Positions 1 through 9,690 of a stretch of DNA of 9,690 nucleotides are shown here, piece by piece. Numbering within the stretch: the first letter of the stretch is position 1; every line of letters begins with the position of its first letter. Origin of the DNA: a virus (taxonomy: Duplodnaviria; Heunggongvirae; Uroviricota; Caudoviricetes). The stretch lies in the IMG/VR virus record IMGVR_UViG_2548876935_000017; one strand, written 5' to 3'. The translations under genes were made by a program, and so were the position numbers. Below the pieces are notes generated by a model, which saw only the letters and a list, made by a program, of their open reading frames with translations, made no database searches and was not told the origin of the DNA.

Positions 1-117
1 GAGGAACTGGCGCAATATAATTTGTGGCTGGATTATCTGGACGCACTGGAACTGGTTGATACCTCCAGTGCTCCAGATATTGAATGGCCTACGCCTCCGG
101 CAGTTCAGGCCAGATGA
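1..117 (+). CDS. Tail fibre assembly protein (Tfa/gpG-like), 3' end only; 5' part off-window
   Basis: Frame 1 is open from base 1 to TGA at 115-117 and encodes ...LWLDYLDALELVDTSSAPDIEWPTPPAVQAR. This is clearly paralogous to the C-terminus of the minus-strand Tfa (…AVLDYIDAVTATDTSTAPNVIWPELPEA), sharing LDY-DA, DTS-AP and WP--P. Confidence 0.6.
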   Translation, partial: EELAQYNLWLDYLDALELVDTSSAPDIEWPTPPAVQAR

Positions 118-694
118 CATTCGGCGCGGTGCTGGTATCTGTTGCCGTCACTGCGTCAATGTAATCCAGCACAGCATTAAGTCGGGTTGTTTCTGCCTGC
201 GTCAGCTTCCGCCCGGCCTGTAATTTCAGTTGAATCAGACTGATGGAAGCCATTGCAGCATCAATCAGCGACTGGCGCTGTGCTTCTGCCGCGTCTACTG
301 CGGCACTATGCTGTGCCTCAGTATCTGTCACCCATTTCTCACCATCCCATTTATCGTATGGCGTTAACGGGACGATAGTGGTTGTATTTTCAGGGTAATC
401 ACCCGGAGCTGTGATTTCTTTTGATTCTCCCGTTTCGGTGTTATAGACAACTTCACCGCGATGGTCTGGCACATATTCCCATGAGTTTAAATCTGCCGAA
501 CGGCAGATTGCATAACCAACCTTATGTGTGCCAGGAGCATCTAAACAGGAATATGCAGGGATACCGACACCCACAGCAAGATATTCAGTTGATGCAGAAA
601 TATACTCCCGTGTCTCACTGTCATAGTTATAAACGGTAATCTCTCCTGCCTTTGTGGCAATAAATTTATTATTTAAGATGGCGTTATACATCAT
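89..694 (-). CDS. Tail fibre assembly protein, alternative copy (Tfa') carried in the invertible segment
   Basis: 201-aa ORF of typical Tfa size with the conserved C-terminal WPELP motif; its start overlaps the stop of the upstream fibre ORF (ATGA at 691-694); convergent with the + strand tfa 3' end. Confidence 0.85.
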   Translation of the reverse strand: MMYNAILNNKFIATKAGEITVYNYDSETREYISASTEYLAVGVGIPAYSCLDAPGTHKVGYAICRSADLNSWEYVPDHRGEVVYNTETGESKEITAPGDYPENTTTIVPLTPYDKWDGEKWVTDTEAQHSAAVDAAEAQRQSLIDAAMASISLIQLKLQAGRKLTQAETTRLNAVLDYIDAVTATDTSTAPNVIWPELPEA

Positions 695-1269
695 GCAGCC
701 CTCACAATGTAATTAAATGAAATATTACGTGGGCGTGTCTCTGCTGCACCGACAATACTGGTACTCAACCCCGTTGCCGTTCGTTTGTTATTTTTATTTC
801 CTTCAATCAGACAGTTGTAATCATCATTACCAATTAACGAATTGGTGGCATCAATACTGTCCGGGGACAAGGCATTAGTTGTGGAACTTAAAGTCAGCAT
901 CTCGTCTGAACTTGGAAGATTTTTTAATGGTGTTTCATTGCGTGAAATACCCGCGTAAAAAAAGGACTCATGCCTGTGAGCTTCAAAAGAGTCATTCTGA
1001 AGACTTAGCAAGGCTCGCCCCGCATCCACTCCACGTCCATCATCCCAGCCACGAATAAATTCACCGCGTAAATCAGGCAATTTATTGGTCGGGTAAGCCT
1101 TTGTCAGTTCCGGGTATTCTTCAGCAGAAAAAGCCGCACCATTGCATTTCAGCCAGCCTGTTGGCGGTGTGGCTGAAGGCCATGGAACAGGCACACCAAC
1201 AGGTAATGCAGAGCCTTCTCCCAAACCAACGTTTATGAAAATGCAGAGATAACGGCTAACTGGCATCAT
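691..1269 (-). CDS. Alternative tail-fibre C-terminal (receptor-binding) segment, silent orientation. The ATG at 1269 is probably not a real start; in vivo this segment would be fused to the constant fibre N-terminus after inversion
   Basis: 192-aa ORF immediately upstream of and coupled to tfa'; sequence of tail-fibre distal-domain type (…PVPWPSATPPTGWLKCNGAAFSAEEYPELTKAYP…LPDLRGEFIRGWDDGRGVD…); lies between tfa' and the invertase gene, as S'v does in Mu/P1/e14 segments. Confidence 0.7.
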   Translation of the reverse strand: MMPVSRYLCIFINVGLGEGSALPVGVPVPWPSATPPTGWLKCNGAAFSAEEYPELTKAYPTNKLPDLRGEFIRGWDDGRGVDAGRALLSLQNDSFEAHRHESFFYAGISRNETPLKNLPSSDEMLTLSSTTNALSPDSIDATNSLIGNDDYNCLIEGNKNNKRTATGLSTSIVGAAETRPRNISFNYIVRAA

Positions 1270-3727: not shown

Positions 3728-4003
3728 ATGAACAAAGAAAATGTCATTATCCTGGACAATCCGGTTAAACGTGGTGAGCAGGTTATCGAACAGGTCACGC
3801 TGATGAAACCCAATGCAGGGACGCTGCGCGGTGTCAGTCTGGCTGCGGTCGCAAACTCCGAAGTCGATGCACTGATTAAAGTGCTGCCGCGCATGACGGC
3901 ACCGATGCTGACCGAGCAGGAGGTCGCCGCGCTGGAACTGCCTGACCTTGTGGCGCTGGCCGGTAAGGTGGTCGGTTTTTTGTCGCCGAACTCGGTGCAG
4001 TAA
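3728..4003 (+). CDS. E: Tail assembly chaperone gpE (P2 E-like)
   Basis: 91-aa ORF with RBS GAGAAAA upstream; position between the tube and tape-measure genes; contains the T6G slippery site near its 3' end. Confidence 0.85.
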   Translation: MNKENVIILDNPVKRGEQVIEQVTLMKPNAGTLRGVSLAAVANSEVDALIKVLPRMTAPMLTEQEVAALELPDLVALAGKVVGFLSPNSVQ

Positions 4004-4155
4004 CGTTCCCGAAAAATCTGTCGGTCGATGACCTGATGGCGGATGTGGCAGTGATATTTCACTGGCCGCCATCAGAACTGTATCCCATGAGCCTGACCGA
4101 ACTCATCACATGGCGCGAAAAGGCGCTCCGGCGAAGCGGAAACACGAATGAGTAA
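3728..4155 (+). CDS. E+E': gpE+E' frameshift fusion: -1 programmed ribosomal frameshift at the slippery heptamer 3976-3982, extension terminating at TAA 4153-4155
   Basis: In E frame the codons are GGT TTT TTG (3974-3982). The -1 frame is open from the slip site and reads …FFVAELGAVTFPKNLSVDDLMADVAVIFHWPPSELYPMSLTELITWREKALRRSGNTNE*, overlapping the start of T as in P2. Confidence 0.7.
3976..3982 (+). other. Slippery heptamer T TTT TTG for the E/E' -1 frameshift
   Basis: Read directly from sequence; same heptamer class as the P2 E/E' site. Confidence 0.7.
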
Positions 4156-6595
4156 CAATGTAAAATTACAGGTATTGCTCAGGGCTGTTGACCAGGCATC
4201 CCGCCCGTTTAAATCCATCCGCACAGCGAGTAAGTCGCTGTCGGGGGATATCCGGGAAACACAAAAATCACTACGCGAGCTGAACGGTCACGCATCCCGT
4301 ATTGAGGGATTCCGCAAGACCAGCGCACAGCTCGCCGTGACTGGTCATGCACTTGAAAAGGCACGGCAGGAGGCCGAAGCCCTTGCCACACAGTTTAAAA
4401 ACACCGAACGTCCGACCCGTGCTCAGGCGAAAGTGCTGGAATCAGCAAAGCGAGCGGCGGAAGACTTACAGGCGAAATATAACCGCCTGACGGATTCCGT
4501 TAAACGCCAGCAGCGGGAACTGGCCGCTGTGGGAATTAATACCCGCAATCTTGCACATGATGAGCAGGGGCTGAAAAACCGTATCAGTGAAACCACCGCA
4601 CAGCTTAACCGTCAGCGCGACGCACTGGCGCGTGTCAGTGCACAACAGGCAAAACTTAACGCAGTCAAACAGCGTTATCAGGCCGGAAAAGAACTGGCAG
4701 GAAATATGGCCTCAGTGGGCGCTGCCGGTGTGGGGATTGCTGCTGCGGGAACGATGGCCGGAGTTAAGCTGCTGATGCCCGGTTATGAGTTTGCGCAGAA
4801 AAACTCAGAATTGCAGGCTGTGCTCGGTGTGGCAAAAGACTCCGCCGAAATGGCCGCACTACGCAAGCAGGCGCGCCAGCTCGGTGACAATACCGCCGCC
4901 TCAGCGGATGATGCGGCCGGTGCGCAGATTATCATTGCGAAAGCGGGTGGAGATGTTGATGCCATTCAGGCGGCAACGCCGGTCACGCTGAACATGGCGC
5001 TGGCGAACCGTCGCACGATGGAAGAAAACGCCGCCCTGCTGATGGGGATGAAATCTGCCTTTCAGCTTTCAAACGATAAGGTCGCTCATATCGGGGATGT
5101 TCTCTCCATGACGATGAACAAAACCGCCGCTGATTTTGACGGCATGAGCGATGCGCTGACCTATGCCGCACCAGTGGCAAAAAATGCCGGTGTCAGCATT
5201 GAAGAAACTGCCGCAATGGTCGGGGCGCTGCATGATGCAAAAATCACAGGCTCAATGGCGGGGACGGGAAGCCGTGCCGTGTTAAGTCGCCTGCAGGCAC
5301 CGACTGGAAAAGCATGGGATGCACTCAAAGAGCTTGGCGTGAAAACCTCAGACAGTAAGGGAAACACCCGACCAGTATTTACCATTCTGAAAGAAATGCA
5401 GGCCAGCTTTGAGAAAAACCGGCTCGGTACTGCCCAGCAGGCCGAATACATGAAAACCATTTTCGGGGAGGAGGCCAGCTCAGCCGCCGCTGTGCTGATG
5501 ACTGCCGCGTCAACCGGAAAGCTGGACAAACTGACCGCTGCGTTTAAAGCCTCAGACGGGAAGACCGCAGAGCTGGTAAATATCATGCAGGACAACCTCG
5601 GCGGTGACTTTAAGGAGTTTCAGTCCGCTTATGAGGCGGTGGGGACAGACCTGTTTGACCAGCAGGAAGGCGCACTGCGTAAGCTCACGCAGACGGCCAC
5701 AAAGTATGTGTTAAAACTCGACGGCTGGATCCAGAAAAACAAATCACTGGCGTCAACCATCGGCCTCATTGTCGGTGGTGCACTGGCGCTGACTGCTGTC
5801 ATCGGTGCCATTGGCCTCGTAGCCTGGCCGGTTATCACTGGCATCAATGCCATCATCGCGGCAGCAGGCGCAATGGGGGCAATCTTCACGACGGTTGGCA
5901 GTGCTGTTATGACGGCCATCGGGGCGATTAGCTGGCCGGTTGTGGCCGTGGTGGCCGCCATTGTCGCCGGGGCGTTACTTATCCATAAATACTGGGAGCC
6001 TGTCAGCGCATTCTTTGGCGGTGTGGTGGAAGGGCTGAAAGCGGCATTTGCGCCGGTGGGAGAACTGTTCACGCCACTGAAGCCGGTGTTTGACTGGCTG
6101 GGCGAAAAGTTACAGGCCGCGTGGCAGTGGTTTAAAAACCTGATTGCCCCGGTCAAAGCCACACAGGACACCCTGAACCGTTGCCGTGACACGGGCGTCA
6201 TGTTCGGGCAGGCACTGGCTGACGCGCTGATGCTGCCGCTTAATGCGTTCAACAAACTGCGCAGCGGTATTGACTGGGTACTGGAAAAACTCGGTGTTAT
6301 CAACAAAGAGTCAGACACACTTGACCAGACCGCAGCCAGAACTCATGCCGCCACGTATGGCACCGGTGGTTATATTCCGGCGATCAGCTCTTATGCAGGC
6401 TATCAGGCTTATCAGCCGGTTACGGCACCGGCTGGCCGCTCTTATGTGGACCAGAGTAAAAACGAATATCACATCAACCTGACGGGCGGTACTGCGCCGG
6501 GAACACAGCTTGACCGCCAGTTACAGGATGCGCTCGAAAAATACGAGCGGGATAAACGTGCGCGCGCCCGTGCCAGCATGATGCATGACGGTTAA
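4148..6595 (+). CDS. T: Tail tape measure protein (P2 gpT-like)
   Basis: 815-aa ORF after E/E'; coiled-coil-like, Ala/Gln/Lys-rich N-terminal half and a long hydrophobic Gly/Ala-rich segment typical of tape measure proteins. Confidence 0.9.
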   Translation: MSNNVKLQVLLRAVDQASRPFKSIRTASKSLSGDIRETQKSLRELNGHASRIEGFRKTSAQLAVTGHALEKARQEAEALATQFKNTERPTRAQAKVLESAKRAAEDLQAKYNRLTDSVKRQQRELAAVGINTRNLAHDEQGLKNRISETTAQLNRQRDALARVSAQQAKLNAVKQRYQAGKELAGNMASVGAAGVGIAAAGTMAGVKLLMPGYEFAQKNSELQAVLGVAKDSAEMAALRKQARQLGDNTAASADDAAGAQIIIAKAGGDVDAIQAATPVTLNMALANRRTMEENAALLMGMKSAFQLSNDKVAHIGDVLSMTMNKTAADFDGMSDALTYAAPVAKNAGVSIEETAAMVGALHDAKITGSMAGTGSRAVLSRLQAPTGKAWDALKELGVKTSDSKGNTRPVFTILKEMQASFEKNRLGTAQQAEYMKTIFGEEASSAAAVLMTAASTGKLDKLTAAFKASDGKTAELVNIMQDNLGGDFKEFQSAYEAVGTDLFDQQEGALRKLTQTATKYVLKLDGWIQKNKSLASTIGLIVGGALALTAVIGAIGLVAWPVITGINAIIAAAGAMGAIFTTVGSAVMTAIGAISWPVVAVVAAIVAGALLIHKYWEPVSAFFGGVVEGLKAAFAPVGELFTPLKPVFDWLGEKLQAAWQWFKNLIAPVKATQDTLNRCRDTGVMFGQALADALMLPLNAFNKLRSGIDWVLEKLGVINKESDTLDQTAARTHAATYGTGGYIPAISSYAGYQAYQPVTAPAGRSYVDQSKNEYHINLTGGTAPGTQLDRQLQDALEKYERDKRARARASMMHDG

Positions 6596-8252: not shown

Positions 8253-8333
8253 TGTCTTTTGTTTATCTGTTTGTTTTATAAGGATAAATTAACTAAAATG
8301 GCACTATCAACAAAACCGGAAGAGGTGCTCGCG

Positions 8334-8552
8334 ATGTTTCATTGTCCTTTATGCCAGCATGCCGCACATGCGCGTACAAGCCGCTATATCACTGACACGA
8401 CAAAAGAGCGTTATCACCAGTGCCAGAACGTGAATTGCAGCGCCACGTTCATCACTTATGAGTCGGTACAGCGATACATCGTGAAGCCGGGAGAAGTCCA
8501 CGCCGTGAGGCCGCACCCGTTGCCGTCAGGGCAGCAAATTATGTGGATGTGA
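8334..8552 (+). CDS. ogr: Late transcription activator Ogr (zinc-finger)
   Basis: 72-aa product starting MFHCPLCQHAAH… with a Cys-X2-Cys…Cys-X4-Cys motif (CPLC, CQNVNC). The ORF track begins at an upstream ATG (8259); the internal ATG at 8334 gives the canonical 72-aa Ogr. Confidence 0.85.
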   Translation: MFHCPLCQHAAHARTSRYITDTTKERYHQCQNVNCSATFITYESVQRYIVKPGEVHAVRPHPLPSGQQIMWM

Positions 8553-8562
8553 TCACAAAAAT

Positions 8563-8589
8563 AGCCCCTCAGTTGAGGGGCTTATTTAT
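8563..8589. terminator. Intrinsic terminator hairpin after ogr (AGCCCCTC-AGTT-GAGGGGCT, then TATTTAT); A-run on the 5' side makes it potentially bidirectional
   Basis: Read directly from sequence. Confidence 0.6.
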
Positions 8590-8679
8590 GGTCGATGTGG
8601 ACGCTATGTGGACAGTGGTTGACATAAATCCATTTATATCATCAGGTTAGGTGCTTTTTTGTGACACCATCCCTGTCTT

Positions 8680-8706
8680 CCCCCACATGATGTGGGGGTT
8701 TTTTTT
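8680..8706 (+). terminator. Strong rho-independent terminator (CCCCCACAT-G-ATGTGGGGG followed by T8)
   Basis: Read directly from sequence; GC-rich 9-bp stem plus U-tract, 81 bp upstream of the fieF start. Confidence 0.7.
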
Positions 8707-8732
8707 ATCCTCAATTTGCCTGCTGCTTAATG

Positions 8733-8761
8733 CATTGCAGATGATTTGCTTCCGTTATACT
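8733..8761 (+). promoter_or_regulatory. Candidate sigma70 promoter for fieF (-10 TATACT at 8756-8761; weak -35-like TTGCAG at 8735-8740)
   Basis: Hexamer inspection only; spacing is suboptimal. Confidence 0.3.
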
Positions 8762-8787
8762 AGCGTCAGTTGATAGCGGGAGTATTT

Positions 8788-9690
8788 ATGAATCAATCTT
8801 ATGGACGGCTGGTCAGTCGGGCGGCGATTGCTGCGACGGCGATGGCTTCGCTGCTATTGCTGATTAAAATTTTTGCATGGTGGTATACCGGGTCGGTGAG
8901 TATTCTCGCCGCGCTGGTGGATTCGCTGGTGGATATCGGCGCGTCGTTGACGAATTTATTGGTGGTGCGATATTCCCTGCAACCTGCCGACGATAATCAC
9001 TCGTTTGGTCACGGTAAAGCTGAGTCCCTCGCGGCGCTGGCGCAAAGTATGTTTATCTCCGGTTCGGCACTATTCCTGTTTTTGACGGGTATTCAACATC
9101 TGATATCTCCAACACCGATGACAGATCCAGGCGTCGGGGTTATCGTGACAATTGTGGCGCTAATTTGTACGATTATCCTTGTCTCGTTTCAGCGTTGGGT
9201 GGTGCGGCGGACGCAAAGCCAGGCGGTGCGGGCTGATATGCTACATTACCAGTCTGATGTTATGATGAACGGCGCAATTCTGCTGGCGCTGGGGTTGTCC
9301 TGGTACGGCTGGCATCGCGCCGATGCTCTGTTTGCATTGGGAATCGGCATCTATATTTTATATAGCGCGTTACGCATGGGATATGAGGCGGTACAGTCAT
9401 TACTGGATCGCGCATTGCCTGATGAGGAACGGCAAGAAATTATTGATATCGTGACTTCCTGGCCGGGTGTTAGCGGCGCTCACGATCTTCGCACGCGGCA
9501 GTCAGGGCCGACCCGCTTTATTCAGATTCATTTGGAAATGGAAGACTCTCTGCCTTTGGTTCAGGCACATATGGTGGCGGATCAGGTAGAGCAGGCTATT
9601 TTACGGCGTTTTCCGGGATCGGATGTAATTATCCATCAGGACCCCTGTTCCGTCGTACCCAGGGAGGGTAAACGGTCTATGCTTTCATAA
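8788..9690 (+). CDS. fieF: Cation-diffusion-facilitator ferrous iron/zinc efflux transporter FieF (YiiP)
   Basis: 300-aa product from ATG 8788 ([25 protein letters not shown]…), recognised as E. coli FieF/YiiP; multiple hydrophobic helices and a C-terminal cytoplasmic domain. The ORF track's TTG start at 8770 is an upstream extension. Confidence 0.9.

Follow-up and report, generated by a model that had tools for sequence, protein, structure and literature searches.

Genes and features of the locus

The window analysed here is a 9,690-nucleotide stretch of DNA from a virus of the Caudoviricetes, and its left end carries the convergent 3′ ends of two tail-fibre assembly (tfa) genes. On the plus strand, frame 1 of positions 1-117 is free of internal stops and translates to EELAQYNLWLDYLDALELVDTSSAPDIEWPTPPAVQAR, the last 38 codons of a TfaP-like gene whose C-terminus reads …DIEWPTPPAVQAR and whose TGA stop lies at 115-117. 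This identification draws on the translation, on PF02413, which the 38-residue fragment itself carries on record, and on intact relatives. On the minus strand, an ORF at 89-694 encodes tfa′, a TfaE-like tail-fibre assembly protein of 200-201 aa that is annotated as tfaE in relatives; the 201-aa product ends in …LNAVLDYIDAVTATDTSTAPNVIWPELPEA, its final residues being …VIWPELPEA, and its TAG stop occupies 91-89. Both proteins belong to the Pfam family Caudo_TAP (PF02413, cut-off 22.1): tfa′ matches the profile with E=2.9e-31 and 108.8 bits, and the full-length plus-strand Tfa of a close relative (locus L001) with E=1.2e-32 and 113.2 bits. The initial annotation, which described two tfa paralogues lying tail to tail on opposite strands with 29 bp in common, is therefore borne out, as the two ORF translations place the antisense overlap at 89-117, with the plus-strand TGA ending at 117 and the minus-strand TAG at 89.

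Adjoining tfa′ on the minus strand is a promoterless tail-fibre 3′ cassette (691-1229), the C-terminal part of an alternative fibre protein Sv′/H′ with a Collar domain (Pfam Collar, E=6e-15). Next to it comes a 26-bp crossover site, TTCTCCCAAACC-AA-CGTTTATGAAAA (1216-1241), whose AA core is at 1228-1229. The published repeat of the e14 P segment, CCTTCTCCCAAACCAA (PMC12529663), is present at 1214-1229. A Pin/Gin-family serine DNA invertase follows on the plus strand (1297-1890; Resolvase E=2.9e-52, HTH_7 E=1.1e-12) and is annotated in relatives as a recombinase or as pinE. At 197 aa it is longer than the 184-aa PinE of K-12 (555 bp), and its C-terminal tail (…KKFPSSVTKNKLCHPLANRDK) is a different allele, since pinE-type matches stop near 1751-1757.

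The listed ORF at 691-1269 begins past the crossover core, and its first ~14 codons, MMPVSRYLCIFINV… (1230-1269, minus strand), belong to no real gene; the start at 1269 is not genuine. In relatives, PGAP likewise annotates a 'phage tail protein' CDS that starts beyond the core, there 3 bases short of this ORF start (L001 6691-7266).

Downstream of the invertase lie P2-type genes for the sheath, the tube, E/E′, the tape measure, GpU, GpD and Ogr, and then fieF. The tail assembly chaperones are represented in relatives by a pair of overlapping or adjacent genes at 3728-4003 and 4000/4036-4155. In P2, the programmed frameshift of E/E+E′ falls at the position that corresponds to 3728-4155. The final gene of the prophage encodes an Ogr/Delta zinc-finger late activator (8298-8552; Pfam E=1.6e-21), and fieF, with its Cation_efflux and ZT_dimer domains, fills 8770-9690. 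The end of the prophage and its attachment site must lie within the ~200 nt before fieF (8553-8770).

A probable invertible segment in a P2-like prophage

Judged by gene content and repeats, the overlap belongs to a tail-fibre segment of the invertible Pin type, of which the window holds the right half, within a P2-like prophage adjoining fieF. The left half is seen in relatives: in L001, the partner of the crossover site is an inverted repeat at 5317-5342, inside the fibre gene H. When L001 5329-7229 (1901 bp) is inverted in silico, H (391 aa) is replaced by an intact H′ of 454 aa, directly followed by tfa′, and the constant 5′ part of the fibre gene in this relative is seen to fuse in frame to either 3′ cassette. 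In the orientation of the window, the plus-strand tfa would belong to the aligned cassette and tfa′ with Sv′ would be silent, as we infer by analogy with other invertible segments.

A look-up of the exact protein led to one contig, AIAQ01000283.1 (GCA_000446365.2), whose end coincides with window position 1. The source contig thus stops inside the invertible segment, 88 nt before the overlap, and cuts off the 5′ part of the plus-strand gene. A break at this place is expected both for a segment present in two orientations and for a tfa sequence repeated among prophages; it is compatible with mixed orientations in the source assembly and proves nothing about them. The integrity of the plus-strand gene here rests on relatives because the contig ends where it does. 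The nearest of them occupy the same site beside fieF and align over all 9690 bases with 97.3-97.5% identity, and in them the gene is intact, with 145-146 aa (L001 5680-6117; L002 5677-6117).

These relatives also weigh heavily on an alternative account, by which the plus frame of the window is the relic of a lost partner and the overlap a fossil with no present dual coding. The position of the contig end, 88 nt upstream of the overlap, could be read in this way, and relics of a partner do exist beside the solo tfa genes of phages HK97 and mEp213. Against it, relatives of 97.5% identity possess not only the intact 145-146-aa gene but also the left crossover site and H, and what remains in the window itself, namely the Sv′ cassette, the right crossover site and the invertase, is meaningful only within a complete switch. 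A relic is thus very unlikely.

A shared C-terminal signature

The motif LDY.DA….DTS.AP.I.WP..P, which the initial annotation had noticed in both Tfa C-termini, is found in both translations and is backed by homologues. An alignment of 16 sequences yields the family signature W..Y…D…P..WP..P, in which Y, P and P never vary and W, D, P and W show conservation of 90% or more. In both Tfa proteins the signature stands at the very C-terminus and is coupled with a variable N-terminal domain, as in the rest of the family. The shared motif is, on this alignment, a conserved signature of Tfa proteins and not a product of chance.

Across pairs, the N-terminal parts of TfaP-like partners have a median identity of 40%, and their last 45 residues one of 91%. 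Tfa proteins have been described by a two-domain model in which a variable N-domain binds the fibre and the C-domain is conserved (PMC9608196), and the observed N-terminal diversity and C-terminal conservation fit it. Searching solved structures with single Tfa sequences gave no match, and a profile search recovered only Mu U (5YVQ_B), which was already part of the profile. Structure is uninformative on the Tfa tails, since the C-terminal domain of Mu U is not resolved (PMC9608196).

Anatomy of the 29-bp overlap

The overlap is built around a 28-nt dyad, TGGCCT-ACGCCT-CCGG-CAGTTC-AGGCCA (85-112), of the general form TGGCCT-N6-CCGG-N6-AGGCCA, whose outer arms are the Trp-Pro codons of the two WPxxP motifs. 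The plus-strand motif W-P-T-P-P (…DIEWPTPP) occupies 85-99 and the minus-strand motif W-P-E-L-P (…VIWPELP) 112-98. The last Pro codons, CCG at 97-99 on the plus strand and CCG at 100-98 on the minus strand, share the palindrome CCGG (97-100), because the motifs abut head-on with no spacer between them. Only these final Pro codons overlap; the remainder of each motif faces the unconserved tail that follows the motif of the partner, five codons (AVQAR) in the plus-strand gene and two (EA) in tfa′. Each stop codon falls within codons that the partner conserves: the TGA of the plus-strand gene (115-117) is opposite the Val-Ile codons that precede Trp in tfa′, and the TAG of tfa′ (89-91) is opposite the Pro-Thr codons (CCT ACG) of WPTPP.

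The codon register brings position 3 of plus-strand codons to face position 2 of minus-strand codons, and position 2 to face position 3, so that a substitution which is silent in one gene will as a rule alter an amino acid in the other. The geometry is rigid: in the second of the two surveys described below, the span from W to W is 28 nt with CCGG at its centre in all 64 of 64 measurable pairs. The CTA that marks the minus-strand stop position is kept in all four diverged lineages examined.

The junction in e14 and across enterobacterial genomes

The closest known counterpart is the P segment of e14 in E. coli K-12 (stfP-tfaP / tfaE-stfE-pinE), which has the same gene order, crossover repeat and 29-bp overlap and is reported to be inverted by PinE, PinQ and PinR (PMC12529663). 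In MG1655 the overlap is already annotated, with tfaP at 1208132-1208545 (plus) and tfaE at 1208517-1209119 (minus). The end of e14 TfaP, …WPTPPAVQAR, is identical to that in the window, as are the last seven residues of TfaE, …WPELPEA; five residues further upstream, e14 TfaE has D where the window has N. The two elements differ in their surroundings and in one allele. The window segment belongs to a complete-looking P2-like prophage with H as the constant part, whereas e14 is a defective element in which stfE is a pseudogene, and the N-terminal allele of the plus-strand Tfa in relatives of the window (145 aa in L001, 146 aa in L002) differs from that of K-12 TfaP (137 aa).

Of 5426 complete E. 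coli genomes, 2099 match a 147-nt junction probe (window 30-176) at no less than 80% coverage. Comparison of the junction across related invertible segments finds the 29-bp overlap conserved in most convergent tfa pairs: 77 of 82 in a first survey, for which loci were fetched through the invertase and through the minus-strand Tfa, and 61 of 65 in a second, fetched with a TfaP-like profile, where the other four pairs (4/65) overlap by 20 bp. A locus of Citrobacter youngae with a 4-bp overlap (L011) was left out of the intact pairs because its tfa is a 70-aa fragment. The same 29 bp are also annotated in phages vB_EcoM-606R2, SfIV and Cartapus. They recur in diverged segments of Rosenbergiella, of Pantoea stewartii and of locus L032, where the paired proteins end in …PPEQPAS/…PVAPAA, …IQPEELAI/…PAPPAE and …PPDDLAR/…PDRPVV, respectively.

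The last of these loci is on a contig labelled Vagococcus sp. WN89Y, a Gram-positive bacterium, and yet carries an enterobacterial-type invertible tfa segment; the attribution is probably due to contamination or mis-binning of the assembly.

The window thus adds one more instance of the P segment junction of the e14 type, which is already known and widespread. The arrangement had initially been called unusually compact; given the K-12 annotation, the 2099 of 5426 genomes and the pairs of both surveys, it is standard for this class of segment. The literature search returned no paper that treats the tfa overlap itself, the related finds being PMC12288877 and PMC12529663.

Constraint on both strands

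Sequence variation at the junction was followed in 52 distinct e14-type junction sequences, collected via similarity to the minus-strand gene. Within the overlap (89-117), 3 of 29 sites are variable, against 94 of 176 in the two flanks together (Fisher p=1e-5), which comprise 57 of 88 in the flank coding only on the plus strand and 37 of 88 in the flank coding only on the minus strand. The depletion is seen at the third codon positions of both genes, where 1 of 10 varies inside the overlap as opposed to 23 of 29 outside for the plus-strand gene (Fisher p=2e-4), and 1 of 10 as opposed to 16 of 29 for the minus-strand gene (Fisher p=0.024). All three variants within the overlap spare the protein whose motif is encoded at the site and are non-synonymous in the tail of the partner: 93 G>T leaves Thr unchanged on the plus strand and turns Ala into Glu on the minus strand, 103 G>A is silent for Leu on the minus strand and changes Val to Ile on the plus strand, and 104 T>C is silent for Glu on the minus strand and changes Val to Ala on the plus strand.

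The initial annotation had the shared motif constraining the overlap on both strands at once. The depletion of variation (3/29 versus 94/176) upholds the constraint as such; the two motifs, however, are not superposed, and only their last Pro codons are read on both strands. The dual constraint, as these alignments portray it, is real but narrow.

Part of the conservation could moreover reflect recombination or homogenisation rather than dual coding alone. The stretch of low variability extends ~11 nt to the left of the overlap (78-88), and because of this extension and of the sampling through one gene, homogenisation or recombination at a shared mosaic joint may add to the conservation. Mosaic boundaries cluster within ~60 nt of the overlap: database matches begin at window position 55 or 106, and the SfIV partner diverges from about position 76.

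Natural variants display the coupling of the two reading frames. The tails that follow the motif differ freely among lineages, with AVQAR, AIQAR, AAQAR, VVQAR, EVQAR, VTQAS, GEQAS, EQPAS, EELAI and DDLAR all represented. If the partner encodes WPIPP (ATT) rather than WPVPP (GTT), its counterpart has TAG in place of CAG, ends three residues earlier and overlaps by 20 bp (L218, L219, L221, L234). In the opposite direction, a Val-to-Ala replacement in the partner turns TGA into TGG at locus L116, and the other ORF gains 21 codons, giving a 92-bp overlap between the ORFs at 4515-5006 (minus) and 4004-4606 (plus). We conclude that selection acts on the motif of each gene in its own frame, the tails after the motif being probably passengers.

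Spacers, hairpins and RNA structure

The G segment of Mu and the C segment of P1 (S-U / U′-S′, with gin or cin) are likewise invertible and likewise combine convergent tfa paralogues with an adjacent serine invertase; a recombinational enhancer is annotated in P1 cin. U and U′ of Mu and P1 share with the Tfa proteins of the window the C-terminal motif (W/F)PxxP. They differ at the junction itself, where Mu U/U′ and P1 U′/U are separated by a 28-bp spacer (L004, 3004-3031; L005, 6320-6347) in place of the 29-bp overlap of the window. A segment of Pantoea varia has a similar spacer of 26 bp (L021, 3830-3855). All three spacers hold a perfect GC-rich hairpin of 8-9 bp with U-rich flanks on both strands, and those of Mu and L021 fold with z scores of −3.2 to −5.3 relative to shuffled sequences. 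They look like bidirectional terminators, a feature that is absent from the e14-type junction. Where a tfa gene is solo or of the spacer type (Mu U and U′, the L021 pair, HeidiAbel, APSE-1), a single residue follows the last Pro of its product.

A terminator-like hairpin at the equivalent place in Mu-type segments, together with the invariant register of the dyad, might suggest that the 28-nt dyad of the window is mainly a nucleic-acid signal, be it a bidirectional terminator, an RNA-stabilising hairpin or a protein-binding palindrome. The folding results speak for this at one point, as the fold of the 80-125 minus-strand RNA is somewhat more stable than that of shuffled sequences (z −2.2). 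The other strand of the same interval gives z −0.6, neither has a U run, and folds of 50-150 are not better than shuffles on either strand (z −1.1 and −1.3). A terminator scan found nothing at 85-112 and showed no convincing excess overall, with 6 sites against 3.1 expected; the nearest site is a weak 6-pair stem at L001 6121-6135 (window 121-135). Each conserved base of the dyad is explained by the Trp (TGG) and Pro (CCN) codons of motifs that are invariant in the family, no U run follows the stem, and the inner hexamers are asymmetric and differ between lineages. That the dyad serves chiefly as a signal is accordingly extremely unlikely.

On the fold z scores and the terminator scan, RNA structure or a terminator was rejected as the main explanation of the junction. 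A promoter scan of the silent strand gave 3 promoter-like sites against 4.1 expected and is uninformative.

Transcription across the junction

The overlapping 3′ ends of convergent genes invite comparison with excludons, and the K-12 tfaP-tfaE pair is in fact listed among convergent excludons on the basis of RNA-seq coverage (PMC12288877). What defines an excludon is that the transcripts overlap and repress each other, whereas the partner cassette of the window lacks a promoter and the arrangement is known from sequence. It can still be asked whether the lack of a spacer terminator is itself functional, so that late read-through would produce antisense RNA over the silent cassette, in the manner of an excludon, or would reach the invertase gene and thereby tie switching to late expression. 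The excludon listing in K-12 (PMC12288877), the lack of a convincing terminator at the junction and the co-orientation of the invertase with the late operon are consistent with this. The silent cassette, on the other hand, has neither promoter nor start of its own to silence, a weak terminator-like site precedes the invertase start (L001 7258-7277), and switches of the Mu type function with their terminator present. Functional read-through is on balance quite unlikely.

A broader proposal would make the e14/P-type junction a class distinct from that of Mu and P1, in which a CCGG-centred fusion has replaced the spacer terminator, antisense read-through continues into the invertase, and the two chaperones are coupled. 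The coupling would be evolutionary, because single substitutions create or destroy the stop of the partner. We consider this proposal unlikely as a whole. Regulatory consequences of losing the spacer terminator are conceivable, and what speaks for them is the absence of the terminator and the RNA-seq listing (PMC12288877).

Relics in lambdoid phages

Solo tfa genes of lambdoid phages preserve traces of the same junction. Gp29 of HK97 is 89% identical to the minus-strand protein and has the same …VIWPELPEA end, and gp23 of mEp213 ends in …WPTPPEVQAR, like the plus-strand protein; unlike the genes of the window, both stand without a partner gene or an invertase. Past the TAG in HK97 lie ~55-80 nt of an antisense tfaP 3′ end (L166 3089-3145; 26 residues with the overlap included, 96% identity), and past the stop in mEp213 ~10 nt of an antisense tfaE 3′ end (L169 859-868). 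These relics indicate that tfa genes were exchanged between lambdoid phages and invertible segments, here out of the latter, the breakpoint lying just outside the overlap.

A probable hinge in a host-range switch

The overlap very probably marks the middle of an invertible host-range switch of the Pin type, in which two conserved motifs abut head-on and the tails beyond them are passengers. As seen in full in L001, the segment carries two convergent cassettes, each with the C-terminal part of a fibre and its cognate Tfa, placed between 26-bp inverted crossover sites and accompanied by the invertase gene. To judge from Mu G and e14 P, expression within the late operon would be limited to whichever cassette is in line with the constant 5′ portion of the fibre gene, which lies outside the segment. 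Inversion would move both 3′ ends together and disrupt neither ORF, since the overlap lies wholly inside the segment. Each ORF reads a few codons antisense to the motif of its partner until it meets a stop there by chance (TGA at Val-Ile, TAG at Pro-Thr), so that the sequence and length of its tail are dictated by the codons of the partner, and selection on each gene's own motif would freeze the DNA of the junction.

How the junction arose can be sketched from the spacer-type segments. The ancestor may have resembled Mu and P1, with Tfa proteins ending one residue past the last Pro and a spacer of 26-28 bp holding a terminator hairpin. Removal of ~42 nt (residue, stop, spacer, stop, residue) would then bring the Pro codons into the CCGG register. 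Origin by deletion from a spacer-type ancestor is a scenario and not a demonstrated event. Once formed, the junction would be inherited as a hinge while the fibre-specific N-terminal domains of Tfa were exchanged, a course with which the N-terminal and C-terminal identities of 40% and 91% agree.

As a discovery the overlap carries little weight, for the gene pair and its 29 bp are annotated in reference E. coli and in thousands of other genomes. It is, in turn, a clean and small teaching case of antisense dual coding, in which two conserved motifs meet at a palindrome, the stop of each gene is supplied by conserved codons of the other, and natural variants display the coupling directly. The overlap has practical consequences as well. 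In the engineering of these host-range cassettes, any exchange of tfa genes or of the tips of fibres, any recoding and any Keio-type deletion of tfaP or tfaE will alter the C-terminus or the stop of the partner, and short-read assemblies tend to break at such segments. The antisense relics beside the solo tfa genes of HK97 and mEp213 record earlier exchange between lambdoid phages and invertible segments.
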